64,000 nucleotides of DNA from an uncultured Candidatus Saccharibacteria bacterium (GCA_964434255.1 CAYSUL010000001.1:181695-245694), one strand, 5' to 3'; shown: positions 18,042 to 61,148, numbered from the stretch's first letter. Notes: generated by a model not told the origin, from the sequence alone. Numbers and translations: made by a program.

Positions 18042-18506
18042 TTACCAGGCGAAGTGGGCGAATGCCTTGTTGGCCTCGGCCATGCGGTGCATGTCGTCCT
18101 TCTTCTTGATAGCTGTGCCCTCGTTCTTAACGGCGAGGAGGATTTCCTCCGCGAGCTTCGCTGCCATAGGCTTACCCTTCTTGGCGCGTGCGGAGTTGAT
18201 GAGCCAACGGTATGCGAGGGAGACGCGGCGCTGCTGCGGCACTTCGCGCGGCACCTGGTAGTTAGCGCCACCGACACGGCGGGAACGGACCTCCATGAGC
18301 GGAGAGACGTTGCGGATGGCGGTCTCGAAGGTCTCGAGTGGATCCATCTCCTGCGCCTTGATGAGGTCGAGTGCATCGTAGACGACCTTGCGGGCGGTAT
18401 CCTTCTTGCCGTCCCACATGACGGTGTTGATGAAGCGTGAAATAGCCTCCGAACCATAAACGAGGTCAGGGCGGCGTGGGTACTTGTTTTTTACGGGATG
18501 TCGCAT
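18042..18506 (-). CDS. rpsG: 30S ribosomal protein S7
   Basis: 154 aa. Typical S7 C-terminal core. Confidence 0.93.
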
Positions 18507-18521
18507 GGTGGTATATGAAAA

Positions 18522-18932
18522 CTATGCCTTAGGCTTCTTAGCTCCGTAACGGGAACGGGAACGGCGACGCTTATCGAGACCGGCGGTGTCGAGGCGACCA
18601 CGCACGATGGTGTACTGGACACCGATATCCTTCACGCGACCACCGCGGAGCATGACCACGGAGTGCTCCTGGAGGTTGTGGCCCTCGCCCGGGATGTAGG
18701 CGGTGACTTCCATGCCGTTGGTGAGGCGTACGCGGGCGATCTTACGGATAGCGGAGTTAGGCTTGCGGGGAGTCTTTGTGGTCACCTTCACGCACACGCC
18801 ACGCTTGAACGGCGCCGAGTAGAAGGTTGGGCGGTTCTTAAGGGTGTTGAAGCCACGTCCAAGAGCCACGACCTTCGTTTTGCGGGTCAGTGGCTTACGT
18901 GCCTTCTTCGTGAGCTGATTGATGGTTGCCAT
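18522..18932 (-). CDS. rpsL: 30S ribosomal protein S12
   Basis: 136 aa. PKKPNSA(I)RK and RGGRVKD motifs. Confidence 0.97.
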
Positions 18933-19001
18933 TTCGAAATGAAAACTCCCCCGTGGGAGTTAGGCACACTATATATAAAGGCCTATATAAATGCAAATTA
19001 T

Positions 19002-19442
19002 CTAGGCTTTGCCTGCTCCTTTCCTTCTCAGTCGCTCCGGAAGCTCAGAAGTACCTAGTAATAGGAGCGAGAGGAATCCATAAAGCACTGCAAGTAGGCC
19101 AGCCCACATACTCACATCATTAAGGGCAAAACCTGCAAATTTCATATGTGACAGAGCAAATAGAAGGGGTACGACCAGAATACCGCACCATAAAGAGAAG
19201 CGTGCCCATAGGCTATAAGTCCTACGAGTGGTAAAGAAGGCGAGAAGAGACGCGATAAGGAATGTAATGGAGAGGGGTAGACCTGGATCTCCTATCTCCA
19301 CTTCGTAAGGAGACCTACAAATTAAGCCTTGGGTATTCGTTAACACTTCATTGCACAGCCCGAACCATTCTGGCCATATGAGGTAAGAGGATAGGCCTGT
19401 CGCGAGAATCCCTACACCAATCAATACGTATCTGATGCTCAT
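19002..19442 (-). CDS. integral membrane protein (4 predicted TM segments)
   Basis: 146 aa and hydrophobic. First gene of the low-GC segment. Confidence 0.55.
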   Translation of the reverse strand: MSIRYVLIGVGILATGLSSYLIWPEWFGLCNEVLTNTQGLICRSPYEVEIGDPGLPLSITFLIASLLAFFTTRRTYSLWARFSLWCGILVVPLLFALSHMKFAGFALNDVSMWAGLLAVLYGFLSLLLLGTSELPERLRRKGAGKA

Positions 19443-19444
19443 GG

Positions 19445-22075
19445 CTATTTCTTACTATTCTCTAGCGCTCTGACACAGGTAGCAATAGCCGCAGCACGTT
19501 CTGGGGGGATAGCCTTGAGGTTTGCCTCTACATGCTTTCTTAGATTATTCACGAGGTTCTGGAACTTCTTGGCATCCCTTCCTTGATGTTCCATATTCGA
19601 CATGACGAGCGTGAGGTAGAGGCGAACGAAAAGGGTGCGGACACGACCTATCTCCTTCTTGCAGATACCTATAGCATCTTTGCGAGTGAGCTTATCGCTT
19701 ATATTTGCGTCTGTTGTTCCATCTCCATCTATGTCGAGCGATAGCTGGCTCACACCTGAGCCTGACACAGTAACAGTCGCCTGAGTTGAGGATCCAACGG
19801 GAAGTTTGCTGAATTCCCTAAACACCTCTCCGTTCTCATTGGCAAAAGTAAGATCGAATACTCCACTGCCAGTGCCACTAATCGCGATGTCGTAGGTACG
19901 ATCTGCGGGTAGTACTAGGTACTTTGCTTCCCCGCCAAGCTCGATACTACTTCCTGGAATTCCTTCACGAACATACTTAAGATCGTTGTTTGTATCATCG
20001 TAGCTGAAGATGCCTGTCTGATGTCCGTCACTATCTCTTGCGGCAATTATCGCAGGAGAATGCACCCCAACGATTACTTTTGACTCCGAACTTTCAGGCT
20101 TTGCTATAGGAAACAGATTTTCTTCAAACGAGACATCTAGCCCAAGCAGATTAGCGAGATAGGCATGCATATGAGCCGACTCAGTTATATTCTTATGTAT
20201 CCTCGTTTCACCGAATTGGTCATTTAGTTCCGCGAGATTGAAATAGACAGCCTTGCCTTGAAACACCGCGCTCCTGGTTAAGACCGTTTCATCTCCGTCA
20301 TCCGTAAGCTTTGGCGTGTACTCAATATACGTAGGGCATGAGAGCGAGAAGCAGGACATCTCTTTCGTCACATAGTCCGCGCCACTCATGGTCGACTGAC
20401 CCCAACCTGCTATTTCATACACCTGCACATCAAGAGCCGGTGTCCACGTATCGAGAATCGCATGCGTCGCCTTTGCTTTTGCGACGAGCGCGGAAGAGAG
20501 CGGAAGAGGCGTACCCGTGTCGCCTGCCGTTGGTGCCGGACGCGTTGCCGGATTATTCAGCGCGAAGCTCTCTGCTTCCGCGGCAGTATCAAGAGACGGA
20601 CCATATACATTTGTGAACGCCGTGGTCTTCGCTCCAGGAGCAAACGTTGCGATGGGTGCTGCAGCGTCCTCGAAGTACGCAGCGGAAGGGATAAGCGTAT
20701 ACGCCCCCGGAAATGTCGCCGCGACATCGCGTCTGACCGTTGATGGTATCCAGAACTGCAAGTCTATCTCCCGACCATGCAGCAGTGCTGACAATCCCTT
20801 TGGAGTACCGGTCTGGGGAGTAGCGATGAATATGACCCTGTCTACGAGCCCCGTCTTTCCTTCCGCTGCGAGCTTTACCATAAGCGCTTTTGCGAGAAGG
20901 CCGCCATTACTGTGCCCGATGATTGTTACCCTCCCACTCTTAGAGCTCGCGGCCAAGCGTTCGACCTCAGACACGAGATATTCGCGTGAGCCGTTTTCCT
21001 TGAGCGCACCGTCGCGCACGACATCTAGCACGTCGTACCGCCAATCGTACGAATATCCCTTCCAATCAGCTATCTTTCCTTCCTGCTTAAGCTCATCGAG
21101 GTAGCCCATGAACTTTCCATAGATGGTAGTGCTGTATGGGAGGTTCAAGACCGAATCAATGATGTCGCGCGTATAGACAGTGATTGGACTTGTTCCATCG
21201 GATCCAAGGGCCAACTTCTTCACATCGCTGGTTCCGATTGGCTCCCATAGCAGCTCTTCCCTTTCGCCTTCTTTCGTATACAAACGGCTTGTAAGGAAGC
21301 CAGGTAAGAAAAGTACATTCGACGCCCCGCTCACGACACCTTCAACCACCTCTATCTCAAGGAGGTCGTACATGACCGGAAGCTGAGGAGCACCATCCTC
21401 ATTCTCCTTGCCGTGCTCGATGAAATTCCTGAAGGGTTCAAGCGGGAATGACGCCACCGGACAAAGTTCTCCTTGAGGACCTGTGCATAAGTCAGCTGCG
21501 GTAAGTCCAGGGACGGTTCCTTCATCGGTTCGTTCATATGTCGCGCTAAGCGCGATGACGTATTTGCCGGGAGTATCGAAACGGACAGTAAGGTCAGGAG
21601 TCTCACCGTGCGAAACAGGCGTCGAAGCAATACGGGTACTTGAGCCCAATTCCCCCTGGAACACATCAAGTGTCAGGGTCGCGGATTCAAAGATAGGATT
21701 GAACGGAACTACATGGCCGCCATATGGAGCGAATGGGTCAACCGGATTAACTACATACGACCAGGAGAGATTCCCATCAACGCCAGTCTGAAGCTGCGTC
21801 GGCGCATCCGTACTCAGCGGAGTTCCGTTCCACGCAGCACTCATCTCGAACAGAGTGGCCGCTGCACGCATATGTTCTCTTCCCTCAAAGAAGGGATTCG
21901 GAATCACGAGAATGCTCCCATCTTCCTGAAGACAGCGCTGATTGAAATCAGTGTCATACACGCACGGTTCTTCGGGTGTCTGTGCGAAAACGTGAGCGGG
22001 AAATTGCGAGAACGCGGTCGCGAACAGTAATACAAAGGTCAGTGATTTTTCCATTGCCTGCATCGTAGCGGGCAA
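19445..22075 (-). CDS. large secreted protein with a central LCAT/PGAP1-like alpha/beta-hydrolase (lipase/acyltransferase) domain
   Basis: 876 aa. Signal peptide (MEKSLTFVLLFATAFSQFPAHVFAQ), YDWRYD motif plus nucleophile elbow IIGHSNGG, and Asp-rich DIDGDGTTD near the C-terminus. GC ~48-50%, below the flanking ~60%. Confidence 0.65.
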   Translation of the reverse strand: MPATMQAMEKSLTFVLLFATAFSQFPAHVFAQTPEEPCVYDTDFNQRCLQEDGSILVIPNPFFEGREHMRAAATLFEMSAAWNGTPLSTDAPTQLQTGVDGNLSWSYVVNPVDPFAPYGGHVVPFNPIFESATLTLDVFQGELGSSTRIASTPVSHGETPDLTVRFDTPGKYVIALSATYERTDEGTVPGLTAADLCTGPQGELCPVASFPLEPFRNFIEHGKENEDGAPQLPVMYDLLEIEVVEGVVSGASNVLFLPGFLTSRLYTKEGEREELLWEPIGTSDVKKLALGSDGTSPITVYTRDIIDSVLNLPYSTTIYGKFMGYLDELKQEGKIADWKGYSYDWRYDVLDVVRDGALKENGSREYLVSEVERLAASSKSGRVTIIGHSNGGLLAKALMVKLAAEGKTGLVDRVIFIATPQTGTPKGLSALLHGREIDLQFWIPSTVRRDVAATFPGAYTLIPSAAYFEDAAAPIATFAPGAKTTAFTNVYGPSLDTAAEAESFALNNPATRPAPTAGDTGTPLPLSSALVAKAKATHAILDTWTPALDVQVYEIAGWGQSTMSGADYVTKEMSCFSLSCPTYIEYTPKLTDDGDETVLTRSAVFQGKAVYFNLAELNDQFGETRIHKNITESAHMHAYLANLLGLDVSFEENLFPIAKPESSESKVIVGVHSPAIIAARDSDGHQTGIFSYDDTNNDLKYVREGIPGSSIELGGEAKYLVLPADRTYDIAISGTGSGVFDLTFANENGEVFREFSKLPVGSSTQATVTVSGSGVSQLSLDIDGDGTTDANISDKLTRKDAIGICKKEIGRVRTLFVRLYLTLVMSNMEHQGRDAKKFQNLVNNLRKHVEANLKAIPPERAAAIATCVRALENSKK

Positions 22076-22118
22076 AAGATAATGAAAAGATAAAATTTCC
22101 GGAGTTTTCGTCTCCCAC

Positions 22119-22140
22119 CTGTTGATAACTCCTCATATCC
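22119..22140 (-). promoter_or_regulatory. Conserved 22-nt motif (coding-strand GGATATGAGGAGTTATCAACAG), copy 1, upstream of the hydrolase gene
   Basis: 20/22 identity with copy 2 at 24008..24029. Contains the DnaA-box-like TTATCAACA. Confidence 0.4.
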
Positions 22141-22159
22141 TGACCTTCATTGTTAATAA

Positions 22160-22190
22160 AGAAGCCCCGCCGGTAAACCGACGGGGCTCA
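22160..22190 (-). terminator. Rho-independent terminator of the 22211..23830 gene
   Basis: agccccgcc-ggtaaacc-gacggggct hairpin. Confidence 0.55.
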
Positions 22191-22210
22191 AGGTTCTCTC
22201 GGGCGGGCCG

Positions 22211-23830
22211 CTAGGCCCGCTTCACGAACGTCAGGACGGACACGCCCTGGATGACCGGATGGAACGAGACGAGATGATCGACGCGCTCCACCTGGTAACC
22301 TTCGGCGATGAGCCTATCCTGCTCGTCGACGAAATCAGGAACGTTCGTCCACAACGTGCGGACGCCGAGAACAGCATCCGGTTGGCGCAGGATAGCGCTA
22401 CTTGGTGGCTCTTGTTTGGTCATGGCCATCAGAGGAGCGGTTTCGGGTGGCTCTACTCGCGCTTCAGACTCAACCGCGGGAGCGGGAGCTTCCGCCGGCT
22501 CTGCTGCTGCAACAAGTGGTGGCGTAGGTGCTTCAGGACGCTTCCGAGCGATGGAACCGTCCTTCTGCTTGGGCATCGTCGCCGTAAGCTCACGATAGAT
22601 ACTCCAAGCCTCAATGAGCGCTTTCATCTCCGCACTCTTTTCTTCACGCTTCGGAAGACCGAATAGCCCTTTCGCGTGCGTCGCGATCGTGCTCACGCCA
22701 CCGGTCGAGGCATGAACTGCCTTTGCGGCGAGGGTAACACTCCCCGCCGCAGCCAAAGCATCCAGCACCTCGATTCTCCGAACGCTAAGCTTGCGCGCTT
22801 TCATTGCCCGCTTGATACGAGCAACGACCGCTTCTCGCTCTGCGTCGGTGAAGAGCGAGACCTCCAGGTTTGGGGCAGGCGGAGCCAGTTCGCACAGCTC
22901 CACGATAGGTTCCGCGTCCAGAGGCGTCTCTTCGACGACTTTCGTGGACGAATCCGGCGGCGACGCTTCCGCGAGCTCGCGCCCGCGATAACGCGCCCAC
23001 GCACGGGCGAGCACGACTAACTCCTGCTTGGCTCCTTCCTTTCTTCCTTCGGCCTCGACAGTCGGGACCTTGAAGATCGCCTTCAGTTGCGAGAGACTCG
23101 CGCTTACGCCATTGGCTTCGACACCAAGCGCAGCGGCAATACGTGCCACTGTACCTTCCACGATCAGCGTGTCGAGGATGAGAGCCCTTCGCTCGGTGAT
23201 CGGCTTCCTGTTCATGATTTTCATGATGCGCGACAGAAGCGGGTCGGACCCTTCTGGGGCGGGCGGTTGCACCTCTTGCACTGGTTCAGCCAAGAGAACA
23301 TCCGAGCCTGCTTCTTCAGGCTCCGGAGCCTCGATGATGAGTCTCGGTTCGTCGACGGGCACTTCCCGCACCTCCTCCGGTTGTGGAGCCGCAGTGAGCT
23401 CATCAACGATTGCGCTCTTTGCCGTGGCAAGCGGAAGCGCTCTCTCTTCGTTCCCCAACCTTAAATCAGGGACGGCGACCTTCTCGGCGCTCAACTCGAG
23501 CGCATAAAGAAGGAACTCGGTATGTTCCTCATTGATCGGCCCTGGTTTTTCGTAGATGCGGTTCATGAGGATGGCCGCCGCCCGCTTCTCACCCATCGAC
23601 AGCTTCGTCGAGAGCTTCAGGCTGCGGAACAGCTTTTCCATGAGAAGCGGCAGACGAGCAACCTCAACCCTGAGGCTGCCCGCAATCTTCTGGTCGGAAA
23701 GACCAGCTGACAAGTCGATAAGCAGGGTGGAACTTTGTTCCGAGAGACCATCGATATGCCTGCCGATATTCTGACGGCTTATGGTCGGCGAGAAGACCTT
23801 ACCAGTGGGTGCTTGAACCAACGCAGACAT
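22211..23830 (-). CDS. protein with three tandem LuxR/GerE-type HTH repeats separated by Pro/Glu-rich linkers
   Basis: 540 aa from the ATG at 23830 (AAAGGGG Shine-Dalgarno). Repeats ITERRALILDTLIVEGTVARIAAALGVEANGVSASLSQLKAIFKV and SVRRIEVLDALAAAGSVTLAAKAVHASTGGVSTIATHAKGLFGL, with a weaker N-terminal copy. Confidence 0.55.
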   Translation of the reverse strand: MSALVQAPTGKVFSPTISRQNIGRHIDGLSEQSSTLLIDLSAGLSDQKIAGSLRVEVARLPLLMEKLFRSLKLSTKLSMGEKRAAAILMNRIYEKPGPINEEHTEFLLYALELSAEKVAVPDLRLGNEERALPLATAKSAIVDELTAAPQPEEVREVPVDEPRLIIEAPEPEEAGSDVLLAEPVQEVQPPAPEGSDPLLSRIMKIMNRKPITERRALILDTLIVEGTVARIAAALGVEANGVSASLSQLKAIFKVPTVEAEGRKEGAKQELVVLARAWARYRGRELAEASPPDSSTKVVEETPLDAEPIVELCELAPPAPNLEVSLFTDAEREAVVARIKRAMKARKLSVRRIEVLDALAAAGSVTLAAKAVHASTGGVSTIATHAKGLFGLPKREEKSAEMKALIEAWSIYRELTATMPKQKDGSIARKRPEAPTPPLVAAAEPAEAPAPAVESEARVEPPETAPLMAMTKQEPPSSAILRQPDAVLGVRTLWTNVPDFVDEQDRLIAEGYQVERVDHLVSFHPVIQGVSVLTFVKRA

Positions 23831-24007
23831 GTCATGACCCCTTTCGGCCTGATGATATTTATTATTGTGGGCGATTTGTACTCGGCATCTCGTGGGAGTA
23901 TGGACCAATCCTAAATGAAATCAAATCCGCCCTCGTGAGCATATTAGAACTCCTCGACAGCTCCTGCAGCCATATCACGGAATTCGATTCCTGCTTCTTT
24001 CGACACA

Positions 24008-24096: not shown

Positions 24097-24993
24097 TTAG
24101 TCAGCAGCGGTCTTGAAGTCCTGAACGCTCGAAGTAGCAGTGTTGCCCGCCTTATCGGTCGCTACGACGATGAAGTAGTAGTCAGTGTCATCATTGAGAG
24201 TATCGAGAGCAAGCTCGTGCGTGCGCAAGAACCTCGCAACGGTCTCCTTCTCGGCATCTGCTAGGTCGACATCGTTATCGGTGCCATACCATACGACTGC
24301 TTTCGTACGCTCGTTGGTATTCCACGAGAGCGTTACGGAATCGTCCGTGATGTCATCGGTATCGATATCCGAAATGGCAGGTGCAGTCGTATCGCGGGTA
24401 GTGGTCGCAGTCGAGGTGCTATTCCTCCAATCGACTCCGAGCTTCTTAGCGATACCTTCTGGTATCTTCCCGCACGCAGAGAGGTCTATTGAAGCATTAC
24501 CGAGGCGCTTCTTAGCCTGGCCAGGAGCGATCAGCTTGCCCCACGCCTTGCACTTGAAGTCTGAATCGTCCGCAAGCGCGTTCAGGCGCGCGCGAGTCTT
24601 TGCACCAACAGCGACTTCGCCTTCGACACCGTGCTTCTTCTGGAACTTAGCGACGGCCTTGGCGGTGAGTGCGCCATAGAAGCCGGTCACAAGACCTTCG
24701 GGATAGATATCAGGGTCTGCTGCGAGTATTTCCTGGAGTGCTTTCACCTCTTCGCTCGTCATCCCCTGGCGAAGTTCACCCGCGAGCGCCATAGTCTCCC
24801 TGAGCTCGCTAACGGTTTCGCTATGCTTCTTCATAAGTTCAGCGAGCTGGTCCTGGAGCTTCTTTATCTGCTCGAGGTACGTCTGCATCTGCACACTTGT
24901 CGTGGAGGTTACCGTCTCCGCGAACGCTGCGGTCGGCGCAATGCCTACGACAAGCGAGAGCGCGATAGTGAGTGCGGCTAGTTTCTTTACCAT
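24097..24993 (-). CDS. secreted protein: peptidoglycan-binding (PG_binding_1-like) domain plus C-terminal FN3/beta-sandwich-like domain
   Basis: 298 aa. Signal peptide, LQEILAADPDIYPEGLVTGFYGALTAKAVAKFQKKHGV and DSVTLSWNT...VVWYGTD. Confidence 0.55.
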   Translation of the reverse strand: MVKKLAALTIALSLVVGIAPTAAFAETVTSTTSVQMQTYLEQIKKLQDQLAELMKKHSETVSELRETMALAGELRQGMTSEEVKALQEILAADPDIYPEGLVTGFYGALTAKAVAKFQKKHGVEGEVAVGAKTRARLNALADDSDFKCKAWGKLIAPGQAKKRLGNASIDLSACGKIPEGIAKKLGVDWRNSTSTATTTRDTTAPAISDIDTDDITDDSVTLSWNTNERTKAVVWYGTDNDVDLADAEKETVARFLRTHELALDTLNDDTDYYFIVVATDKAGNTATSSVQDFKTAAD

Positions 24994-25251: not shown

Positions 25252-26004
25252 CTAGTCGAATTCGAGATAGAGGGGTGCATGGTCGGACACTTCGTCCGGC
25301 AATACCTTGAAATCCTTCACTTCGATCTCGCCGCTTACGAACGTGTAGTCGGCGAATTTCTCAGGCTTCGTATAGTGACTGGTGCGAGTCGAGGTCACGC
25401 CATATTCCTTTATGAGGTTACGCAGACCTGCTGCTTCGATTCGGCTTACGCTCTCGGTATCCGGCCGAAGATTGAAATCTCCCATTAAAATAACTCGTTC
25501 TTTCCGTGCAACAACGAAGCCTGCGATGCGATCCGATTGCTCGAGTCGCTCGGCGCAGTCAGCCTTTCCCTGGCCGTTCCATAGCCCGTGGACATTCATG
25601 ATGGTGAGTGGCCCGCCAGAAGTAAGAACGGTTACATATTGCAGGTTCCGAGCGTGATTGCCGTATTCATCCGGTGAGATGAATCCCGCTTCCTTATATA
25701 CGTAAATCTCCCCCTCTTCCTCGACCGCCAGTTCTTTCCGTACATACATGGCTAGTCCGTAATAGTCACTGAAGTGGGGCCGGAAATACACCCGATGATC
25801 GGGCAGCGCCTCCTCGATATCCTGCAGCAACCGCGTGTTCCTCTTCGCTAATTCAAAATCGCTTTTCTCGCCCAACATTTCTTCTCCCCCATTCCATATC
25901 TCTTGAAGGCAAAAAATATCCGCATCCGCATGCTTCTTGAAGAATGCAAGGAGTTCGCTCATTCCCGCCTCGCCTCCCCACGTATTGAGTGAGATGACCT
26001 TCAT
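25252..26004 (-). CDS. endonuclease/exonuclease/phosphatase (EEP) family protein
   Basis: 250 aa. N-terminal KVISLNTWGGE and C-terminal SDHAPL motif. Confidence 0.7.
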   Translation of the reverse strand: MKVISLNTWGGEAGMSELLAFFKKHADADIFCLQEIWNGGEEMLGEKSDFELAKRNTRLLQDIEEALPDHRVYFRPHFSDYYGLAMYVRKELAVEEEGEIYVYKEAGFISPDEYGNHARNLQYVTVLTSGGPLTIMNVHGLWNGQGKADCAERLEQSDRIAGFVVARKERVILMGDFNLRPDTESVSRIEAAGLRNLIKEYGVTSTRTSHYTKPEKFADYTFVSGEIEVKDFKVLPDEVSDHAPLYLEFD

Positions 26005-28752: not shown

Positions 28753-29241
28753 CTATGCTGCGAAAGGCTCGAACACCGGCGACTGGAGGAGTTCGCTCGC
28801 GTTGTCGTTTTGATAGACCTGGAGATTGAAGCGCTCCCCAGCCAGCACGTTCGGGATCCACTCCTTGTCGGACGCGAGCATCCGATGGAACGGAAGCTTG
28901 TCTTTCGAATGCCACCACACCGGGCTCGCCCACATATCCTGCGTATCGGACGGCTCACCGCGGAATGATGTGACGAGATAGACATAGACGCGCCAGACGC
29001 TCGCCACTCCGTTATGGAAGGTGATGACCGCCCGTAGGTCCTCGTCCGTCACATCGATAGCGAGTCCCACTTCCTCCTGCGTTTCGCGAACGACGCATTC
29101 GTTCGTTGTCTCCCCCGGGTCCACCTTCCCGCCCGGACCATTCAGGGTGTCGCCGCCTATTTCCGCTGTGCGCTTTTTGAGTCCAAGGAGGAGCTGGTCC
29201 CCGCGGACGATGAGCGCGAGCGTCGCCTGCTTCATATCCAT
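28753..29241 (-). CDS. NUDIX hydrolase (MutT-like)
   Basis: Nudix box GGKVDPGETTNECVVRETQEEVGL. Start set at MDMKQATLALIV. Confidence 0.8.
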   Translation of the reverse strand: MDMKQATLALIVRGDQLLLGLKKRTAEIGGDTLNGPGGKVDPGETTNECVVRETQEEVGLAIDVTDEDLRAVITFHNGVASVWRVYVYLVTSFRGEPSDTQDMWASPVWWHSKDKLPFHRMLASDKEWIPNVLAGERFNLQVYQNDNASELLQSPVFEPFAA

Positions 29242-29345
29242 AGGGTACTCCTTTCCTGGTCCATTCATACCCCTAAAGCCACACCTCATCAACCGCTCAC
29301 GGAAAAGCGCTATACTCTCCGTACTTGGAAGCTAACCGAATATCC

Positions 29346-54021: not shown

Positions 54022-54936
54022 TTAGTCGAGCTCGTCGACAGCCTCGTCAGCGAGATCTTCCGCCTCTTCTGCGTGGTCAATGGCCTCATCGTAGTCCTTG
54101 TCATCGAATGCATCGATAGCGTCGTCATATTCTTCCTCGGCCTCATCGAGGAGGTCTTCGGCTTCGTCGACGTCCTCACCATCGTCATCAGCATCTTCGA
54201 CTTCGTCCCATGCGTCGTCGATAGCATCATCCGCATCCTCAAGAGCTTCGCGAGCGCGGCTCTCGGTGCCATTGTTGCTTGAGCCATTGTCGTCTATCTC
54301 ATCGATAGCGTCCTCGGCTGCATCCTCTGCATCGTTAGCGAAGTCTACGGCGTCGTCGTACTCCTCATCGTCGTATGCGCGGTCCGCCTTGCGGAGGTCC
54401 TTGCGAGCATCGTCGAGGAAATCATCGGCATCGTTGATGTCCTTGTTCCTGTCCTCTGCCTCTTCTACTTCATCCTTGGCGTCGTCGTACGCCTCTTCTG
54501 CATCGCGGATTGCCTTGCGGGCATCATTGCGATCATGATCATCGTCATCATCGTTCGATGAACCCGTGTTGATGGGGTTGTTTGTGAAGACGTTCGAGCT
54601 CCCACCAGTGAGTGATGCAACTCGGAAGTATCCGGTTACCTGCTGACCGTTCGCTGCCTGGAGACGAGCAACAGCTGCCTGGGTGAGCGTACCGAAGTAG
54701 GTGCCCTCATAGCCATATGAGCCGAGGCCGGAGTAGGCGACAGTATAGCCGGAAGCATTGAGATAGCGCTGGAGGCAGCGTACATCCTCGCCCACTGCCC
54801 CGAGTCCGAGGTCGCGGGTGAATACGCACTGGGTTACCTGGGCGCTTGCTGCCTGAGCGAAGCCCAGAATCATGAAAGCTGCTGCGATAAACGCAACGAA
54901 AGCTAGGATTCCTGTCTTAGAATTGATGTTCTGCAT
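54022..54936 (-). CDS. secreted protein: PG_binding_1-like domain plus ~180-aa extremely Asp/Glu-rich repetitive tail
   Basis: Start at MQNINSKTGILAFVAFIAAAF. CLQRYLNASGYTVAYSGLGSYGYEGTYFGTLTQAAVARLQ, then a DDAxDExED low-complexity tail. Confidence 0.6.
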   Translation of the reverse strand: MQNINSKTGILAFVAFIAAAFMILGFAQAASAQVTQCVFTRDLGLGAVGEDVRCLQRYLNASGYTVAYSGLGSYGYEGTYFGTLTQAAVARLQAANGQQVTGYFRVASLTGGSSNVFTNNPINTGSSNDDDDDHDRNDARKAIRDAEEAYDDAKDEVEEAEDRNKDINDADDFLDDARKDLRKADRAYDDEEYDDAVDFANDAEDAAEDAIDEIDDNGSSNNGTESRAREALEDADDAIDDAWDEVEDADDDGEDVDEAEDLLDEAEEEYDDAIDAFDDKDYDEAIDHAEEAEDLADEAVDELD

Positions 54937-55094
54937 AGTAAATAAGCCATTTATAATCGTTCGCCCGGTACCTACTACCGACATTACACCAAAAGTAGGT
55001 GGAAAAGCAATGAAGACGATTTTGATGGACTAAAGACTAAGACGTGGCGGGTGAATATTGCTTTCGTAGGCCTAGACCTTAGTGAATTAGAGTG

Positions 55095-55165
55095 TGCGGG
55101 ATAGGAGAATCGGACTCCTGCTCTCAGTTTGGAAAACTGATGTTCTACCATTAAACTAATCCCGC
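55095..55165 (-). tRNA. tRNA-Gly (anticodon UCC)
   Basis: Cloverleaf with 7-bp acceptor GCGGGAT/ATCCCGC and anticodon loop TTTCCAA. T-loop reads TCCGATT, so C at position 55 is unusual. Confidence 0.6.
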
Positions 55166-55235
55166 TTCGCCAAAGAGAATACCATAGCCAGCGCATGAGC
55201 TGTATTTTTGAACGGCTCCGGTGTAGCGTTCATAT

Positions 55236-56303
55236 ATGCCCGCTCTCCAAGGCGTCATCTCCGCGCTTTCTGCGCTTATCATCACGCTTAACTCGCTTTA
55301 TGGAGCGCAGATGGGTTCAACTACCCCGCAAGTTACTGGTATCTTCGGGCCCGCGGCAACGAGCACGGTCTCGGTTCCTGCACCCGAAATCCCGAAGCCT
55401 ACCGTACCCAAGCCCGCTACCTCGGGCGGACTCGCTCCCCTGCTCCCTCACGCTCCCTCGACTGACCTTGCGGTAGCACTCGGTACGCTTCGAGGCGCGA
55501 TTGTGAATATCGTCTGCATATCCAAGGACACGAAGATTCGTTCGATGTCCGGTAGTGGCGTCATCTTCGACCCTAAAGGCCTCATCCTCACCAATAGCCA
55601 CATCGCGCAGTACTACATGCTGAAAGAGGTACTGCCTGAGGGCGCTATTACCTGCATCATTCGCGCAGGAAGCCCCGCACAGGCCGCATACAGGGCAGAA
55701 GCGGCGTATGTATCAAGTGAATGGATACAGGACAACCCAAGCACCCTGGTCGCGACCGTGGCACGCGGCACCGGAGAGCATGACTTTGCCGTGCTCGCGA
55801 TAACAGGGAGCGCGTCACCCATTCCCCTTCCAGGCTCCTTTCCATACGTTCCCCTCACCAAAGCAACGCCGAAACTCAAGGACAATGTGGGTATCGGCTC
55901 GTATGGTGCACAGAATCTCACTTCCAAGCAGATACAGAGCTCCCTTCTCCCCACACTCGTGTTCGCTCAAGTGAAGAGCATCTACACGTTTGACTCAACG
56001 AGTATCGATCTCCTCACCCTAAGCGGGAGCGCGGCCGGCCAACACGGCTCTTCGGGCGGCGGCATCGTGAACGCGAATGGTCAGCTTATGGGAATAATCA
56101 CAACCGCAAGCGATAAGGGTGAGTTCGGCAACCGCGAGGTGCGCGTAGTCACCGCAGGACATATCCGCAGCAGCTTCAAGGAGGATAGCGGTCAGGACTT
56201 CGACTCTTATTTCAAGAATGGCAGCATTGACGCCTTCGTTTCAGTCTTTGTGGACGACGCGAATCGCATGGGCAAGAAGCTCCTTTCGACGCTTCAACAT
56301 TAG
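55236..56303 (+). CDS. trypsin-like (S1/S1C) serine protease, secreted or membrane-anchored
   Basis: 355 aa. LTNSHI (His), D, and GQHGSSGGGIVNANGQLMGI (Ser) catalytic triad. Confidence 0.7.
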   Translation: MPALQGVISALSALIITLNSLYGAQMGSTTPQVTGIFGPAATSTVSVPAPEIPKPTVPKPATSGGLAPLLPHAPSTDLAVALGTLRGAIVNIVCISKDTKIRSMSGSGVIFDPKGLILTNSHIAQYYMLKEVLPEGAITCIIRAGSPAQAAYRAEAAYVSSEWIQDNPSTLVATVARGTGEHDFAVLAITGSASPIPLPGSFPYVPLTKATPKLKDNVGIGSYGAQNLTSKQIQSSLLPTLVFAQVKSIYTFDSTSIDLLTLSGSAAGQHGSSGGGIVNANGQLMGIITTASDKGEFGNREVRVVTAGHIRSSFKEDSGQDFDSYFKNGSIDAFVSVFVDDANRMGKKLLSTLQH

Positions 56304-56304
56304 T

Positions 56305-56375
56305 CGGGGTGCGGAGAATTGAACTCCGTCTATCTGCTCCCAAAGCAGACGTACTACCGGTATACGACACCCCGT
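56305..56375 (-). tRNA. tRNA-Pro (anticodon UGG)
   Basis: Acceptor CGGGGTG/CACCCCG, anticodon loop TTTGGGA and T-loop TTCAATT. Confidence 0.8.
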
Positions 56376-56663
56376 TCACTGCATCCTACCAGCTTTAATG
56401 GATTTGCGGGAGGTGTTCTGTTTTAGATCTCACACCACGCACGTGACTACACCAGAGTCTCCCATTTATGGTTTCGACCTGGTTAGGGGACTTCATTGAG
56501 AGATGCTGCTGACCGAGACGGTGACTGAGAATAGAACGGCCTGAATGCTAAGTATTCTTCGGACTCGCCATTAGAAGTCTTCTTTGTCTTATGTCCTTTA
56601 TCCCCACTGTGAACACCTTTGTCCCCAACGCAAAACGGCCCTGAAGGGCCGTTTTGCCTCGTG

Positions 56664-56734
56664 TGCGGATAGGGAGAATCGAACTCCCGACTGATCCTTG
56701 GCAAGGATCCGTTTTACCACTAAACCATATCCGC
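56664..56734 (-). tRNA. tRNA-Gly (anticodon GCC)
   Basis: Acceptor GCGGATA/TATCCGC, anticodon loop TTGCCAA and T-loop TTCGATT. Confidence 0.85.
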
Positions 56735-56775
56735 TTCGCTCGGAATACTAACACAATCGCTATCTCTTTTTCTAG

Positions 56776-56847
56776 TGCTCCCGCCAGGACTCGAACCTGG
56801 AACGACAGTTCCGAAGACTGTTGTGATATCCGTTTCACTACAGGAGC
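56776..56847 (-). tRNA. tRNA-Arg (anticodon UCG)
   Basis: Acceptor GCTCCTG/CGGGAGC, anticodon loop CTTCGGA and T-arm CCAGG-TTCGAGT-CCTGG. Confidence 0.8.
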
Positions 56848-56906
56848 GTATTCAGATATTACGCGAGAGCTAGGAGAATGACCACACGCATACTAGTATT
56901 TTCTCA

Positions 56907-58370
56907 ATGCACTTCCCTGTTCCGCTTGAGGTGAGGGCCGTATCTGACGGACTTCGAAAAGAAGGTTTCGAAGCTTATCTGGTTGGCGGCTGCGTGCGCG
57001 ACCTCCTCCTTAGTCGCGAACCCAAGGACTGGGACGTAACGACGAATGCTAAGCCCGAGGATATCCAGCGCATATTCCCTGAATCCTTCTATGAAAACGA
57101 ATTCGGGACTGTAGGGGTAAAGACAGGCTCGAAAGAGCCGAAGCTCGCGGTCATCGAAGTAACTCCCTACCGAACGGAAACCGGATATTCAGATAAGCGG
57201 CGTCCGGACGAGGTCATATTCGGTGAAAGCCTTGAAGACGACTTGGCTCGCCGGGACTTCACCATCAATGCTATCGCACTTGATGAGTCTAAAGGACATC
57301 TCGTTGATCCATATAAAGGACAGGTAGACATCGAGGCTCGTGTCTTGCGGACAGTCGGGAATGCTGAGGATCGCTTCGAAGAGGATGGTCTTCGTCTTAT
57401 GCGGGCTGTCCGATTGGTCGCCGAGCTCGAGTTCGCGCTCGACGCTGACACGGCCGCAGCTATACAGAATAAGGGTCAAAACCTCAAGCTCATTTCACGT
57501 GAAAGAATCAGGGACGAGTTTGTCCGGATACTCGAGTCCAGGCAGCCAATGATGGCTCTTACACTTTCCCAACAGCTTGGGATCCTTGAGTATATCGCCC
57601 CGGACCTTACGCGCGGCATAGGCATCGAGCAGAACCAGGCTCATAGCTACGATGTTTTCGAGCATCTTATGCGGGCCGTACAGCACGCAGCAGATAAGGA
57701 CTGGGACTTCGATATCCGCCTCGCTGCCCTATTCCATGATGTATCTAAGCCTGAAACTCGCCGCTGGTCAGACGAAAAGAAGGATTGGACATTCCATGGT
57801 CATGAAGTGGTTGGTTCACGTGTAACACGCAAAGCACTCGAAGATATGCGGTTTTCACGTGAAACTATAGAGAAAGTGACCAAATTAGTGCGCTGGCACA
57901 TGTTCTTCTCGGATCCTGACCAGATAACATTATCGGCCGTTCGCCGCATGATAGTGAATGTCGGAGAGGAGAATATATGGGATCTGCTCAACCTCCGTAT
58001 TTGCGACCGCATCGGAACAGGGCGTCCGAAAGAACAGCCATTCCGCTTCCGAAGGTATAAGGCCATGGTTGAAGAGGCCCTGCGCGACCCGATCAGCGTG
58101 GCAATGCTTAAGACAGACGGGAGCAGCATTATGGAAAAGTTCCACGTGCAACCTGGACCGAAAATAGGCTATATTCTCCACGCTCTACTCGAAGAGGTTC
58201 TCGAGGATCCCCAGAAGAACAATGAGGCATATTTGGATACTCGGACGGAGAGCCTGTTGCAGCTCTCAGACAGCGAACTTAAGGAATTGGGTGATTCGGG
58301 TAAGAAACGAAGAGAAATTGAAGAGGAGAGGGAAGTACGGGAAATCCTCGAAAAGCATCACGTTGGCTAG
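56907..58370 (+). CDS. cca: CCA-adding tRNA nucleotidyltransferase with HD domain
   Basis: 487 aa. GGCVRDLLL...DWD head domain and HD motif LFHDVSKP. Confidence 0.85.
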   Translation: MHFPVPLEVRAVSDGLRKEGFEAYLVGGCVRDLLLSREPKDWDVTTNAKPEDIQRIFPESFYENEFGTVGVKTGSKEPKLAVIEVTPYRTETGYSDKRRPDEVIFGESLEDDLARRDFTINAIALDESKGHLVDPYKGQVDIEARVLRTVGNAEDRFEEDGLRLMRAVRLVAELEFALDADTAAAIQNKGQNLKLISRERIRDEFVRILESRQPMMALTLSQQLGILEYIAPDLTRGIGIEQNQAHSYDVFEHLMRAVQHAADKDWDFDIRLAALFHDVSKPETRRWSDEKKDWTFHGHEVVGSRVTRKALEDMRFSRETIEKVTKLVRWHMFFSDPDQITLSAVRRMIVNVGEENIWDLLNLRICDRIGTGRPKEQPFRFRRYKAMVEEALRDPISVAMLKTDGSSIMEKFHVQPGPKIGYILHALLEEVLEDPQKNNEAYLDTRTESLLQLSDSELKELGDSGKKRREIEEEREVREILEKHHVG

Positions 58371-58910
58371 GGAATGGGCTGTTCCACGTGAAAAGCGCCT
58401 GTATAAAAGGCTAAAAGCACTACCGGAGTAGTGCTTTTAGCTTGTGCTTATTATAAACATTTCACGTGAAAACTCTATGAAATAAGAAAGAGCCTCGTTT
58501 TTAGCGCGGAAACAAGGTTTCTAGGCTAAAGACGAGGCTCTTTATTTGTGGCTACTTTGCGACCCGGGGTGTAGGACCTAAATGGGGCTTGGGGCTTTGT
58601 GGTTGGCCTACTGGAGGAAAACGGGGGCCGCATTTGGCATGATGATCGAAAGAACTGCGCTTTCACGTGGAACCGGACCGGACCCAGTATTTATCAGGAG
58701 ATACGCTCCGAAGACGGTGGAAGGGCCAGAACGCAACGTTATGCGCCTAACCTGGAAAGAGCTCGCAAGGAACAGCCGAAGCGCGGAAGAGTCCGCGTAT
58801 CATGGCATGATCCGCGAGCCCCTCCACGTCCTCAAGTAATAGTAGGTTATGTCTAGGACAGAGTAAAGGACACTATCCGCAGATGTGTGTATAACTATGT
58901 CTCTTATGTC

Positions 58911-59705
58911 CTATAGGACAATGGAGATGGGGCAGTGGTCGGAGCCCATAACCTGAGGGTGGATGTCCGCTTCTTTTATATGCTTCTTGAAGCTCTTCGA
59001 GACGAAGAGATAATCTATACGCCACCCCACATTCCGTTCGCGAGCTCCTCCGAAATTGCTCCACCATGTGTAGAGTCCATTCCCTTGCTTGAACATGCGA
59101 AGCGTATCGACGAATTCAGCGGCCAATATCTGGTCGATGCCTTCCCGCTCTTCGGCAGTAAAGCCTTTCATTCCCTCGTTCTCCTTGGGACGGGCGAGAT
59201 CATCTGCCGTATGCGCAACGTTCAAATCACCGCCAAAAATAACAGGCTTCTCCTCTTCAAGCCGCTTCATATACTCCAGAAACGCTGGATCCCAGTGCTT
59301 GTGGCGAAGCCCTAAACGGGACAAATCATCCTTGGCGTTCGGGGTATATACAGAAACTACATAGAAATCGTGCATATCTGCCGCGACAATTCGGCCTTCC
59401 TGATTAGGGTCACCGTAGCCATCGTCCGCGAGACCATGCTTTTCTGCGATGTCTTCAGGCATGCCGAAGATCACATCGTTCGGGGTCATTTTGGTGAATA
59501 TGGCCGTTCCGCTATATCCTTTGCGACCTTTCGAGGAGCTCCAGAATTCTTCGTAGTCAAGGAGGTCGAGAGGGGATTGCTCCTGCTCTGCCTTGGTCTC
59601 CTGGAGAAGGAGTATGTCCGGCTTGTACTTCTTAATGAAGGGCATGAACTCGTCCTTTCTATGGACGGCCCGTATCCCGTTCACATTCCAAGACATGATG
59701 CGCAT
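58911..59705 (-). CDS. xth: exodeoxyribonuclease III (AP endonuclease)
   Basis: 264 aa. MRIMSWNVNG, LQETK and SDHCP motifs. Confidence 0.92.
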   Translation of the reverse strand: MRIMSWNVNGIRAVHRKDEFMPFIKKYKPDILLLQETKAEQEQSPLDLLDYEEFWSSSKGRKGYSGTAIFTKMTPNDVIFGMPEDIAEKHGLADDGYGDPNQEGRIVAADMHDFYVVSVYTPNAKDDLSRLGLRHKHWDPAFLEYMKRLEEEKPVIFGGDLNVAHTADDLARPKENEGMKGFTAEEREGIDQILAAEFVDTLRMFKQGNGLYTWWSNFGGARERNVGWRIDYLFVSKSFKKHIKEADIHPQVMGSDHCPISIVL

Positions 59706-59722
59706 GTGCGCATTCTAGCAAA

Positions 59723-60628
59723 CTACCTCTGTTTCGAATGGAATTTCTTGTGCACCTCGCGAAGATGCGCATCGGTCACGTGCGTATATATCTGGGTGGT
59801 GTTGATAGAGGCATGCCCTAGAAGGGCCTGAACACTGCGTAAATCGGCCCCGTTAGAGAGTAGGTCAGTAGCGAAGGAGTGGCGAAGGACGTGAGGAGTG
59901 ACCTTCTTGGTTATACCGGCCTTAGCGGCATAGAACTTCATGGTGCGCTCGACCGAGCGGGGAGTGAGGCGTGACGGCGTCTTCTTACTATCCTTCCCGA
60001 CCTTCGGAATGTTCACGAAGAGTGCTTCTTCCATGTCCTTACGGGCCTTCATGTAAGCGCGCGCTGCGTCCTTCGCGGCAGGGGACAGGAATACGACCCG
60101 TACCTTGTCACCCTTTCCGCGCACAGAGAGATCATCCCGCGACAGGTCGATATCGGAGTTGAGAGCGCAGAGCTCGGAAACGCGCAGGCCTGTAGAGAAC
60201 AGCATTTCCATGATCGCCTTGTCACGGAGCGCCTTCTCGCTATCTCCATCGGTAGCACTAATCAATCGCTCAAGCTCGGCGCTTGAAATAAGGTCTATCT
60301 GACGCTCGGGAAGCTTCGCCAGCTCTATACGCTCAGGATTAAGGCCATCGATTCCTCGTTTCCTAAGATATTTAAGGAATGCGCGCAGCGCGATGAGGTA
60401 GTAATTCTGCGTGCGACGCTTCATTGTGCCTGCAGTACCGGGCTGACGGTTGAGCCAGAGCCTGAATTCCCGGATTTTGTCCTCAGTTATGTCAGGAATC
60501 TCCTTTATCTCCATCTGAGTAAAGAAACGGTCGAGATAATGTTCATAATTCTCGACCGTTTTGATCGCGCGACCGCGCTCGATCTCGGTATATTCGAGGA
60601 ACTGGCGGAGCATAGAGCGAGCATCCAT
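59723..60628 (-). CDS. tyrosine site-specific recombinase XerC/XerD family
   Basis: Start at MDARSMLRQFLEY. R...HxxR...Y catalytic residues (LRHSFATDLL, LGHASINTTQIYTHV). Confidence 0.85.
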   Translation of the reverse strand: MDARSMLRQFLEYTEIERGRAIKTVENYEHYLDRFFTQMEIKEIPDITEDKIREFRLWLNRQPGTAGTMKRRTQNYYLIALRAFLKYLRKRGIDGLNPERIELAKLPERQIDLISSAELERLISATDGDSEKALRDKAIMEMLFSTGLRVSELCALNSDIDLSRDDLSVRGKGDKVRVVFLSPAAKDAARAYMKARKDMEEALFVNIPKVGKDSKKTPSRLTPRSVERTMKFYAAKAGITKKVTPHVLRHSFATDLLSNGADLRSVQALLGHASINTTQIYTHVTDAHLREVHKKFHSKQR

Positions 60629-60731
60629 GTGGGCAGTGTAGCATCCGTAACGTCGTAAAATCTTGGCAGGGGAGACCGTCCGCACCCCACAACACTTGCG
60701 CTTTTAATCAAGATGTGGTAAGGTAGGGCTA

Positions 60732-60998
60732 ATGCTAACGAAACGCGTGAAGACGGCCGTTATTAAAGAAACGGCAGTGCATCCTACTGATACCGGCTCA
60801 GCTCCGGTCCAGGTGGCTATCCTTACCCGCAAGATTGAGGAGCTTACCGCCCACCTCAAGAAGAACAAGAAGGATTTCCACTCTCGCCGTGGCCTTCTCC
60901 AGATGGTCGCTGACCGTCGCGCGCATCTTCGCTACCTCGAAAAGAACAATAAGCGCGGCTACAACGCACTTATCAAGAAGCTTGGTTTGAAGAAGTAG
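60732..60998 (+). CDS. rpsO: 30S ribosomal protein S15
   Basis: 88 aa. [12 protein letters not shown]...[16 protein letters not shown] pattern. Confidence 0.93.
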
Positions 60999-61148
60999 GA
61001 CTCGCGGGCACACAAGCCCGCGATTCTCGTTTCATAAGCAGGTGCTAGACTATATATGACGTAGCCGGTGGCTACCATCATTTTAATGAATCAGGGGAGT
61101 GAGGGTTATTTTCAATACAACCTGCTTCCTATCTAATTACATACCGTT

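Follow-up and report, generated by a model that had tools for sequence, protein, structure and literature searches.

In a 64,000-nucleotide stretch of DNA from an uncultured Candidatus Saccharibacteria bacterium (GCA_964434255.1 CAYSUL010000001.1:181695-245694), referred to here as the window, four genes lie 5' of the ribosomal-protein gene rpsL and on the same strand: a 146-aa open reading frame (ORF), an 876-aa ORF, a 565-aa gene with helix-turn-helix (HTH) stretches, and a PG_binding_1/fn3-like gene. The two nearest to rpsL are considered here. The larger (19445-22075), taken from the ORF list and assigned by Pfam, an AF2 model and Foldseek, encodes a putatively secreted hydrolase resembling LCAT and lysosomal phospholipase A2 (LPLA2), and is called the lipase gene below. 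The smaller (19002-19442, also from the ORF list) encodes a four-helix membrane protein of 146 aa, referred to as the partner. Both, like the other features of the locus described below, are on the minus strand. An earlier note, made from the sequence alone, had read this stretch as a horizontally acquired, low-GC island encoding a secreted lipase. The lipase and partner genes form an old module, found mainly in Paceibacteria/Parcubacteria-type lineages, and the near-obligate pairing of an LCAT-type enzyme with an orphan membrane-protein family is new.

The hydrolase and its gene

The lipase stop codon occupies 19445-19447, and the partner gene begins 2 nt past it. The longest lipase ORF runs from a first TTG and gives the 876 aa of the earlier note, while ATG 22063 would give 872 aa and ATG 22054 would give 869 aa. 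A database protein (P0001, NCBI/Logan; 872 aa, start at ATG 22063, on an NCBI contig of 312 kb) is identical to the window lipase, and ATG 22054 is plausible as a start too, because homologues start at the position of Met8; judged from these sequences, one of the two ATG codons is the likely start. Pattern scans, which report consensus matches only, found a terminator-like hairpin at 22162-22189 (12 pairs, 9 of them G-C, then CTTTATT), which separates the lipase gene from the 565-aa gene 5' of it and would thus mark the 5' limit of a two-gene unit. In the spacer between the partner gene and rpsL (18944-18997), the same kind of match was found for a promoter-like TTTGCA-18-TATAGT (18997-18968) and for a G+C-rich hairpin with a T-run (18961-18944) that ends 12 nt short of the rpsL ATG. 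Terminator-like hairpins therefore stand on both sides of the pair, and we infer that the lipase and partner genes form one operon. The hairpin at 18961-18944, being 3' of the promoter-like site, could either end the transcript of the lipase operon or form a structure in the rpsL-rpsG leader; an Rfam scan of 17.5-24.5 kb, this hairpin included, gave no match.

Profile, motifs and fold together make it very probable that the enzyme is an LCAT-family hydrolase. It scores 47.7 bits against Pfam LCAT (PF02450; cut-off 21), with residues 327-603 aligned to positions 74-356 of the 392 in the profile, and a precomputed PF02450 match is present in all 72 homologues. When a profile of this 72-sequence family was compared with PDB sequences, human LCAT was found at E 1e-6, with GHSNGG aligned to the GHSLG of LCAT (Ser181) and DGDxTV to DGDDTV (Asp345). 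The LCAT/PGAP1 label of the earlier note is hence right in its first half only; the PGAP1-like model (PF07819) reached 22.2 bits against a cut-off of 24.3, and did so over residues 376-425 only, round the nucleophile elbow. The two motifs that had drawn attention, YDWRYD and IIGHSNGG, are located at residues 343-348 (YDWR at 343-346) and 385-392. Among the 72 sequences, which go down to 25% identity, no variation was seen at Y343, D344, W345, R346, S389, D595 or H627, and the codons of the putative triad were checked at 20909-20911 (Ser389), 20291-20293 (Asp595) and 20195-20197 (His627). F256, P258 and G259 are conserved in at least 90% of the 72 sequences. FLPGF, at residues 254-258, is in the position usual for an oxyanion hole, for which it is a candidate.

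An AF2 model built from the 72-sequence alignment has a mean predicted local distance difference test (pLDDT) score of 87.2 and a pTM of 0.78, with pLDDT >90 over residues 250-800. It shows a signal helix, a less confident N-terminal module, a core with cap, a beta-sandwich and a four-helix tail. In Foldseek searches of the PDB, the model matched LPLA2 (4X97; E 3.5e-12, target TM 0.61) and LCAT (4X96; E about 3e-9, target TM up to 0.64), the match spanning about 375 residues, cap included. Further matches were to bacterial lipases that are secreted or attack membranes, namely Tle4, a phospholipase of the type VI secretion system (T6SS; E 1.7e-8, target TM 0.41), the Bacillus lipase BlEst2 (E 5e-6, target TM about 0.4) and Legionella PlaB (E 8e-5, target TM 0.24). 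Since the best structural matches are LPLA2 and LCAT, the GHSxG elbow lies within an alpha/beta-hydrolase fold in the model, as had been expected from the motifs. Membership of the T6SS Tle families was considered and rejected, as Pfam Tle3 gave only E 0.18 and no T6SS genes were present at the loci with called genes examined.

The N-terminus reads MEKSLTFVLLFATAFSQFPAHVFA followed by QTP and is signal-peptide-like, as judged by eye and from conservation among homologues. A Sec-type signal peptide, MQAMEKSLTFVLLFATAFSQFPAHVFA, was assigned by eye at 21983-22063, with predicted cleavage before QTP and no lipobox; 29 aligned homologues have this n-h-c layout as well, and the model has a helix at residues 10-21. 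Next comes a beta-rich module (residues 32-245; 21341-21982) of lower pLDDT, with strands at 76-179/180 and Cys pairs 38/48 and 197/205. The sequence of this module is kept only in the closest homologues, and other members of the family carry other modules in its place (beta-helix, PKD, PG-binding or FlgD-Ig-like). The LCAT/LPLA2-like alpha/beta-hydrolase core and its cap (residues 246-655; 20111-21340; pLDDT >90) contain a further Cys pair, of which C575 is found in 64/72 and C580 in 62/72 sequences.

The core is followed by a beta-sandwich (residues 656-793; 19697-20110; pLDDT >90) with ten strands at 666-792, which opens with HSP (672-674) and closes with a D781-x-D/N-G-D-G-x-x-D789 loop, here DIDGDGTTD. 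Of the 72 sequences, 70-71 share S673, P674 and D781 and 58-65 share G784, D785, G786 and D789, and position 783 is D or N in 65; from this pattern, the loop is probably a Ca2+ site. No Pfam model covers the beta-sandwich. A dockerin or Ig-like identity for the C-terminal region, which the earlier note had proposed to search for, was not borne out: no such Pfam family matched at E up to 1, and there is a single DxDGDGxxD loop, not a duplicated F-hand. The protein ends in a four-helix tail (residues 794-876; 19448-19696; helices 798-810, 815-830, 835-851 and 858-872), which is helical family-wide and poorly conserved in sequence, with Cys805/Cys867 in the tails of close homologues. The confident model thus contains each of the extra parts described in the earlier note: a large N-terminal region, a beta-rich C-terminal domain bearing DIDGDGTTD, and a tail of helices. 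All eight cysteines of the lipase fall into four neighbouring pairs (38/48, 197/205, 575/580 and 805/867), and these, with the signal-peptide-like N-terminus, point to an extracytoplasmic enzyme. The domain architecture as a whole is new: a variable module at the N-terminus, then the LCAT core, the conserved beta-sandwich and a tail of helices.

The membrane partner and the two-gene module

The partner bears out the 4-TM protein of the earlier note. Its AF2 model (mean pLDDT 85.6) has four hydrophobic helices at residues 3-22, 47-69, 73-99 and 110-143, and nearly all of the protein is membrane-embedded in the model, with loops of at most 30 aa. Both ends are predicted, by eye from the positive-inside rule, to be cytoplasmic. 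The outward loop between helices 1 and 2 carries a short beta-hairpin with Cys30 and Cys42, and no residue other than these two and Trp79 is conserved family-wide (≥90%). No Pfam or NCBIfam family covers the partner, databases name its members only 'hypothetical' or 'uncharacterized', and comparison of its model with PDB structures gave no fold match (best E 0.5). A word-indexed search with the single sequence returned just 2 homologues, whereas profile and exhaustive searches returned many: 1,708 cluster representatives (50% identity) in an exhaustive profile search at E up to 1e-3, or 656 when the limit is set at 1e-10, with lengths of 120-165 aa in nearly all. None of the homologues from these searches is named or has a Pfam domain, and a Pfam scan of 36 members gave weak, scattered matches (DUF202 in 6/36, VKOR in 2/36 at E 0.011). 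Two database proteins, P0171 and P0182, are apparent double-length partner fusions.

Two known types of membrane protein were tried for the partner. A thiol oxidoreductase of VKOR/DsbB type would share the four helices and the C30/C42 loop pair; this reading was rejected because there is no CxxC, and only W79 is otherwise conserved. A lipase-specific foldase (Lif) was rejected as well, the partner having four helices in 146 aa, no large periplasmic domain and no PDB match.

The spread of the pair was surveyed by a pattern scan and tblastn, with one genome per GTDB species, and at least 579 loci with an LCAT-family lipase gene were confirmed. Downstream partners were counted in the 80 best-scoring loci, of which 75 have enough downstream sequence. 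Almost all of these 80 are labelled Patescibacteria (Kaiser-, Nomura-, Moran-, Taylor-, Giovannoni-, Lipton- and Zambryskibacteria and Paceibacterota), and a few bins are vaguely or doubtfully labelled. A hidden Markov model (HMM) of the partner, iterated over every ORF from six-frame translation of the fetched loci (6,899 ORFs, 885,312 residues), matched only ORFs directly 3' of the LCAT gene and on the same strand. The partner was found beside the lipase in 65/75 loci, with a spacing of mostly -28 to +35 nt, and a shorter three-helix ORF of 92-103 aa occupies its position in a further 3. In the reverse direction, all four partner homologues taken from a context-blind profile search proved to lie directly 3' of an LCAT-domain gene (907-1064 aa), at a spacing of 2-5 nt or overlapping, while all other neighbours differ.

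This pairing bears on the possibility that the enzyme is a nutrient-scavenging esterase acting on something other than membrane lipids, such as polyhydroxybutyrate (PHB) polyester, cutin-like material, O-acetylated wall polymers or short-chain esters. The weaker fold matches include the PHB depolymerase PhaZ7, family I lipases and Firmicute esterases in which a C-terminal beta-sandwich tunes chain length, and JGI auto-annotation calls members of the family 'pimeloyl-ACP methyl ester carboxylesterase'. However, the best sequence and fold matches are to LCAT and LPLA2, which act on phospholipids, over about 375 residues with the cap, and a near-obligate partner embedded in the membrane is hard to explain for a soluble polymer esterase. 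We regard this reading as highly unlikely.

Tandem copies of the partner raise a different question. Two or three partner-profile matches follow a single lipase gene at 7 loci (L017, L027, L035, L051, L075, L080 and L087); pairwise comparison, made for six of these loci, gave identities of 24-97% between copies, and the second match in L051 is a 71-aa fragment. Such arrays are typical of immunity genes, and the pair could be a toxin with its immunity factor, in which the phospholipase mainly kills or lyses a host or competitor, in the manner of T6SS Tle lipases, and any supply of lipid is incidental. The fold likeness to PlaB and to Tle4, which was crystallised with Tli4, a small and fast-evolving gene immediately 3' of the enzyme gene, and variable N-terminal targeting modules with mosaic alleles (described below), as in an arms race, would all fit. 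Pore-forming colicins are known to have immunity proteins that are small and cross the membrane several times. The known Tli proteins, however, are soluble or lipoprotein periplasmic binders and not four-helix membrane proteins with very small loops, no secretion-system context was seen at the loci with called genes examined, and broad, near single-copy conservation beside ribosomal operons suggests a core function more than accessory weaponry. A toxin and immunity pair is unlikely on balance, and it would overlap with the role on host membranes that we favour below and would not exclude it.

The module adjoins ribosomal-protein operons in many lineages (L008, L019, L036, L053, L065, the window, L002, L006 and L009), standing 5' of rpsL-rpsG-fusA-tuf in some and 5' of rplJ-rplL in others. 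Two loci with different accessions and labels, L010 ('Patescibacteria group') and L041 ('uncultured Bdellovibrionales'), both come from sequences of 135,761 bp with LCAT-family genes at different positions; they may be the same contig deposited twice, with two paralogues, which would also show that some bin labels are unreliable.

Base composition and inheritance of the locus

The low-GC stretch of the earlier note is real. GC is 0.510 over 19002-22075 against a mean of 0.569 for the 64-kb window (sd 0.024 in 3-kb windows), the lowest 3-kb window in the 64 kb begins at 18901, and 1.9% of windows are equally low. GC at third codon positions (GC3) is 0.521 in the lipase gene (z = -2.4) and 0.449 in the partner gene (z = -3.4), both of them minimum values, against 0.686 +/- 0.070 for the 42 other window ORFs of at least 150 aa. 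GC1 and GC2 of the pair are ordinary, and the deficit lies at third-codon, synonymous sites. The dip appears the sharper because the neighbouring genes are highly expressed and have very high GC3 (EF-G 0.82, EF-Tu 0.78, rpsL 0.74), and a 1-kb profile shows further lowish stretches at 25-26, 41-42 and 56-61 kb. A gene rich in hydrophobic codons is expected to have a lower GC. As a general caution, locally low GC next to ribosomal genes with high expression can stem from the class of a gene (surface or membrane, fast-evolving) and not from foreign origin.

A comparison of 69 species-level loci favours that explanation. Lipase-gene GC (0.31 to 0.68) moves in parallel with that of the flanks (0.30 to 0.62); it averages 1.5 points below the flanks and is lower in 47/69 loci (p 5e-5), while the partner gene lies 7.9 points below and is lower in 55/57 (p 7e-11). 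The pair is GC-poor relative to its neighbours in L002 and L004 too. As the pair is usually AT-richer than its flanks across the 69 loci, the dip belongs to the gene class. In the clade of the window the offset is larger (-5 points in the window, -4.4 in L010, -8.0 in L011), and so it is inherited with the gene. The foreign composition claimed for the stretch therefore stands in so far as the two genes depart from the rest of this genome, and fails in that the gene follows the GC of its host from locus to locus.

Gene order in relatives bears on the claim of horizontal acquisition. The pair lies 5' of a gene cluster for ribosomal proteins and elongation factors, with S10, EF-Tu, EF-G, rpsG (18042-18506), rpsL (18522-18932) and also a type IV pilin-like gene. 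In L002, a Patescibacteria bin from the Hainich aquifer, gene order is common with the window from S10 to ComEC, over about 20 kb; ribosomal proteins and elongation factors are 91-98% identical to those of the window, the lipase 57%, the partner 48%, the pilin 58% and the PG-binding protein 63%. L009, a 3.7-kb contig with the closest homologue, has the PG-binding gene, lipase, partner and rpsL spacer in order. Gene order from S10 to ComEC is common to the more distant L006 as well, where the lipase (35% identical) again has rpsL on one side and the M50 peptidase, Lactamase_B and SOD genes on the other, but its gene is inverted and the partner gene is absent. The ribosomal proteins of L002 and L006 are 86-98% identical to those of the window. 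Scans for tRNA genes and repeats, and for integrases or recombinases, found none at the locus apart from chance-level short repeats, and the nearest tRNAs and recombinase are at 55-61 kb.

A recently acquired foreign island carrying a lipase virulence factor is therefore most improbable and largely refuted. It would account for the lowest-GC 3-kb stretch with its GC3 z-scores of -2.4 and -3.4, for mosaic alleles among close relatives, and for the 3' two-thirds of this allele being without a close relative (45-70% identity). Against it, the enzyme gene stands beside rpsL over a wide divergence in L002, L009 and L006 (in L006 inverted and without the membrane gene), the locus lacks mobility genes, tRNA and flanking repeats, and the closest homologues are all labelled Patescibacteria or unclassified metagenome, in a family found across Patescibacteria whose GC tracks that of the host in 69 genomes. 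Read from gene order and homology, the locus is ancestral and vertically inherited, not an island, and the horizontal acquisition proposed in the earlier note is not upheld.

Recombination does occur at the locus, since alleles are mosaic among close relatives. Protein P0002 is 78-92% identical to the window protein in the N-terminal module and 45-70% in the catalytic and C-terminal part, whereas against P0005 and P0006 its N-terminal module is 31-48% identical and most of its catalytic and C-terminal part 85-100%. The first 40 residues of P0005 equal those of the window protein; P0006 was not placed on any contig. The mosaic alleles, together with the unrelated N-terminal modules, suggest recombination at domain boundaries, diversifying a surface-exposed targeting region, and not import of the locus.

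Among the neighbouring genes, the 565-aa gene (22211-23908) lies between the PG-binding and lipase genes, has two or three weak LysR/LuxR-type HTH stretches with Pro/Glu/Ala-rich linkers and a normal GC (0.588), and is followed on its 3' side by a strong terminator-like hairpin. It is missing at that site in L002, L003 and L009, and so is a real lineage-specific insertion here. The gene at 24097-24993 encodes a secreted-looking PG_binding_1 protein with an fn3/purple-acid-phosphatase-N-like domain, and adjoins the lipase gene in L002 and L009 too; a second secreted-looking PG_binding_1 protein is encoded at 54022-54984 (minus strand). A PADLOC scan of three genes for defence systems gave no match, and an NCBIfam scan gave sub-threshold noise only. 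Genes at 25252-26004 and 28753-29292 lack an L002 counterpart in the otherwise collinear block, one of them an Exo_endo_phos nuclease with a GC of 0.515. A second low-GC stretch, at 55000-61000 (0.50-0.54), has more island-like hallmarks than 19002-22075, with four tRNA genes (Gly, Pro, Gly, Arg; 55094-56847), a CCA-adding/poly(A) polymerase-type gene (56907-58370), an Exo_endo_phos nuclease (58911-59705) and a tyrosine recombinase (59723-60685).

Proposed role and comparison with known systems

LCAT-family enzymes take an acyl group from a phospholipid onto their serine and pass it either to water, as phospholipase A, or to a lipid alcohol, as transacylases. For the pair described here, we propose a cell-surface phospholipase A or transacylase that acts on host membranes, with the partner as its tether and/or self-protection; we put the probability of this reading at an even balance. 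Action on a host or partner membrane, which the earlier note had suggested, is plausible. The large protein would be exported via the Sec pathway as a putatively competent Ser-Asp-His acyl-ester hydrolase or transferase of LCAT/LPLA2 fold. Outside the epibiont, it may engage the membrane of a host or neighbouring bacterium, aided in targeting by the swappable N-terminal module. There it would strip acyl chains from glycerophospholipids as a phospholipase A, possibly with transacylation as in LCAT and LPLA2, which are phospholipases and transacylases alike (for LPLA2, PMC6027918). The lysolipids and fatty acids released could enter the membrane of a cell that lacks fatty-acid synthesis. The beta-sandwich and its probable Ca2+ loop may modulate substrate access, as a beta-sandwich does in Firmicute esterases (PMC10816834). 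The partner would be made in step with the enzyme by translational coupling and, in the producer's membrane, could be a docking site for the enzyme and/or a guard against self-attack. Protection is favoured by the divergent partner genes found in tandem and by the structural likeness to Tle4, and tethering by stoichiometric coupling and the lack of any other anchor on the enzyme; the two roles are compatible.

The literature gives this proposal a setting. Cells of the candidate phyla radiation (CPR) are enriched in lysolipids, probably derived from other bacteria, and phospholipase A has been suggested as the source, with no enzyme named (PMC7242380). Patescibacteria have been reported to be without lipid synthesis (PMC7242380; PMC11665869), and a 2024 perspective describes their mechanism of lipid uptake and breakdown as unidentified (PMC11665869). 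A different lysophospholipase (COG2267), gained by horizontal gene transfer, has been described in one Paceibacteria bin (PMC12455944). In a literature search that did not extend to subscription-only papers, we found none tying Patescibacteria to LCAT-like enzymes, and CPR phospholipases were mentioned in general terms only.

A bolder version of the proposal is that the pair is the missing membrane-building route of lipid-auxotrophic Patescibacteria, in which a transacylase held at the surface moves host acyl chains onto the cell's own lysolipids. Such an enzyme would need neither ATP nor CoA; in place of a direct transfer, it might supply lysolipid and fatty acid. The partner would keep it in place and correctly oriented on the producer membrane and shield that membrane, and the N-terminal modules would help to set host range. 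This version is speculative, and we hold it to be rather improbable.

The enzyme might instead look inward, as a housekeeping enzyme of the cell's own envelope that remodels outer-leaflet lipids, lipoproteins or glycolipids, for example by CoA-free re-acylation of scavenged lysolipids, with the partner presenting or accepting the substrate. LCAT and LPLA2 are also transacylases (for LPLA2, PMC6027918), a lysolipid-rich membrane would need re-acylation (PMC7242380), and tight translational coupling and adjacency to core ribosomal operons in many lineages would suit such a role. However, swappable modules of adhesin type (beta-helix, PKD, PG-binding) and rapid mosaic evolution suggest an external, variable target, and, apart from two Cys and one Trp, no polar or catalytic residue of the partner is conserved. 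This inward role therefore appears doubtful to us.

Several points weigh against a phospholipase or transacylase acting on host membranes. H627 follows the Asp, as in LCAT, and its place in the putative triad was assigned from invariance and the structural match and not by way of coordinates. The enzyme carries no known anchor to wall or membrane, and its fold relatives include esterases acting on non-membrane substrates. The lipid auxotrophy of this genome is assumed from its phylum and is not shown by the window. Organism labels of many metagenome bins are unreliable, and most cultured Patescibacteria are Saccharibacteria, which may or may not carry the module. Finally, 7/75 loci have no small membrane gene and yet retain the catalytic motifs and tail. 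As about 7 of 75 family members are without an adjacent membrane gene, the partner is not strictly required in cis; partner-less enzymes showed no clear difference from the others in motifs or tail length, in a comparison whose regular expressions were too strict for some sequences.

Patescibacteria make up a very large, mostly uncultured share of bacterial diversity. The proposed host-membrane role provides a concrete gene pair for testing lipid acquisition, with an enzyme found in hundreds of species and nearly always accompanied by a dedicated membrane protein, and an orphan membrane-protein family of about 1,700 clusters gains a suggested role from its genomic context.

Among known systems, Tle4-Tli4 of Pseudomonas aeruginosa (4R1D) resembles the pair in combining a bacterial phospholipase of related fold with an adjacent cognate gene for protection, and Tle4 attacks the membrane of another bacterium. 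The differences are the Sec signal peptide here, a neighbour that is a four-helix integral membrane protein and not a periplasmic binder, and a target TM of only 0.41. The immunity proteins of pore-forming colicins and bacteriocins, with about 110-180 aa and 3-4 helices, are encoded next to a membrane-attacking protein, evolve fast and sometimes occur in arrays. The partner showed no sequence or fold relationship to them, and the associated protein is here an enzyme, not a pore former.

Lipase genes followed by the gene of a needed, membrane-anchored protein are also known, in the LipA-Lif/LipB systems of Pseudomonas, Burkholderia and Acinetobacter (2ES4, 9G8U), and the lipase chains of LipA-Lif complexes are among the weak Foldseek matches of the window enzyme. 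Lif differs from the partner in that it has a single membrane helix and wraps the lipase in a large scaffold of helices, about 300 aa, on the periplasmic side. BlEst2 (6WPX) and EstA3 are, like the window enzyme, secreted alpha/beta-hydrolases followed by a C-terminal beta-sandwich packed on the catalytic domain, and a beta-sandwich of this type affects the use of long-chain substrates or inhibits the enzyme (PMC10816834). The match is weak (E 5e-6, TM about 0.4), and these enzymes are without reported LCAT-type motifs, a helical tail or a known membrane partner.

LPLA2 (PLA2G15) and LCAT are 13-17% identical to the window enzyme in structural alignments. Unlike them, the window enzyme is bacterial, is longer at the N-terminus by about 245 residues, carries a conserved C-terminal beta-sandwich with its DxDGDGxxD loop and, after it, a tail of helices, and is accompanied by a small membrane partner gene. 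Common to all three are the hydrolase core and cap, an early PG, YDWR, GHSxG and DGDxTV motifs, a Ser-Asp-His triad, the His of which is putative in the window enzyme, and the character of a secreted protein with disulfides, which in the window enzyme is predicted from its signal peptide and paired cysteines.

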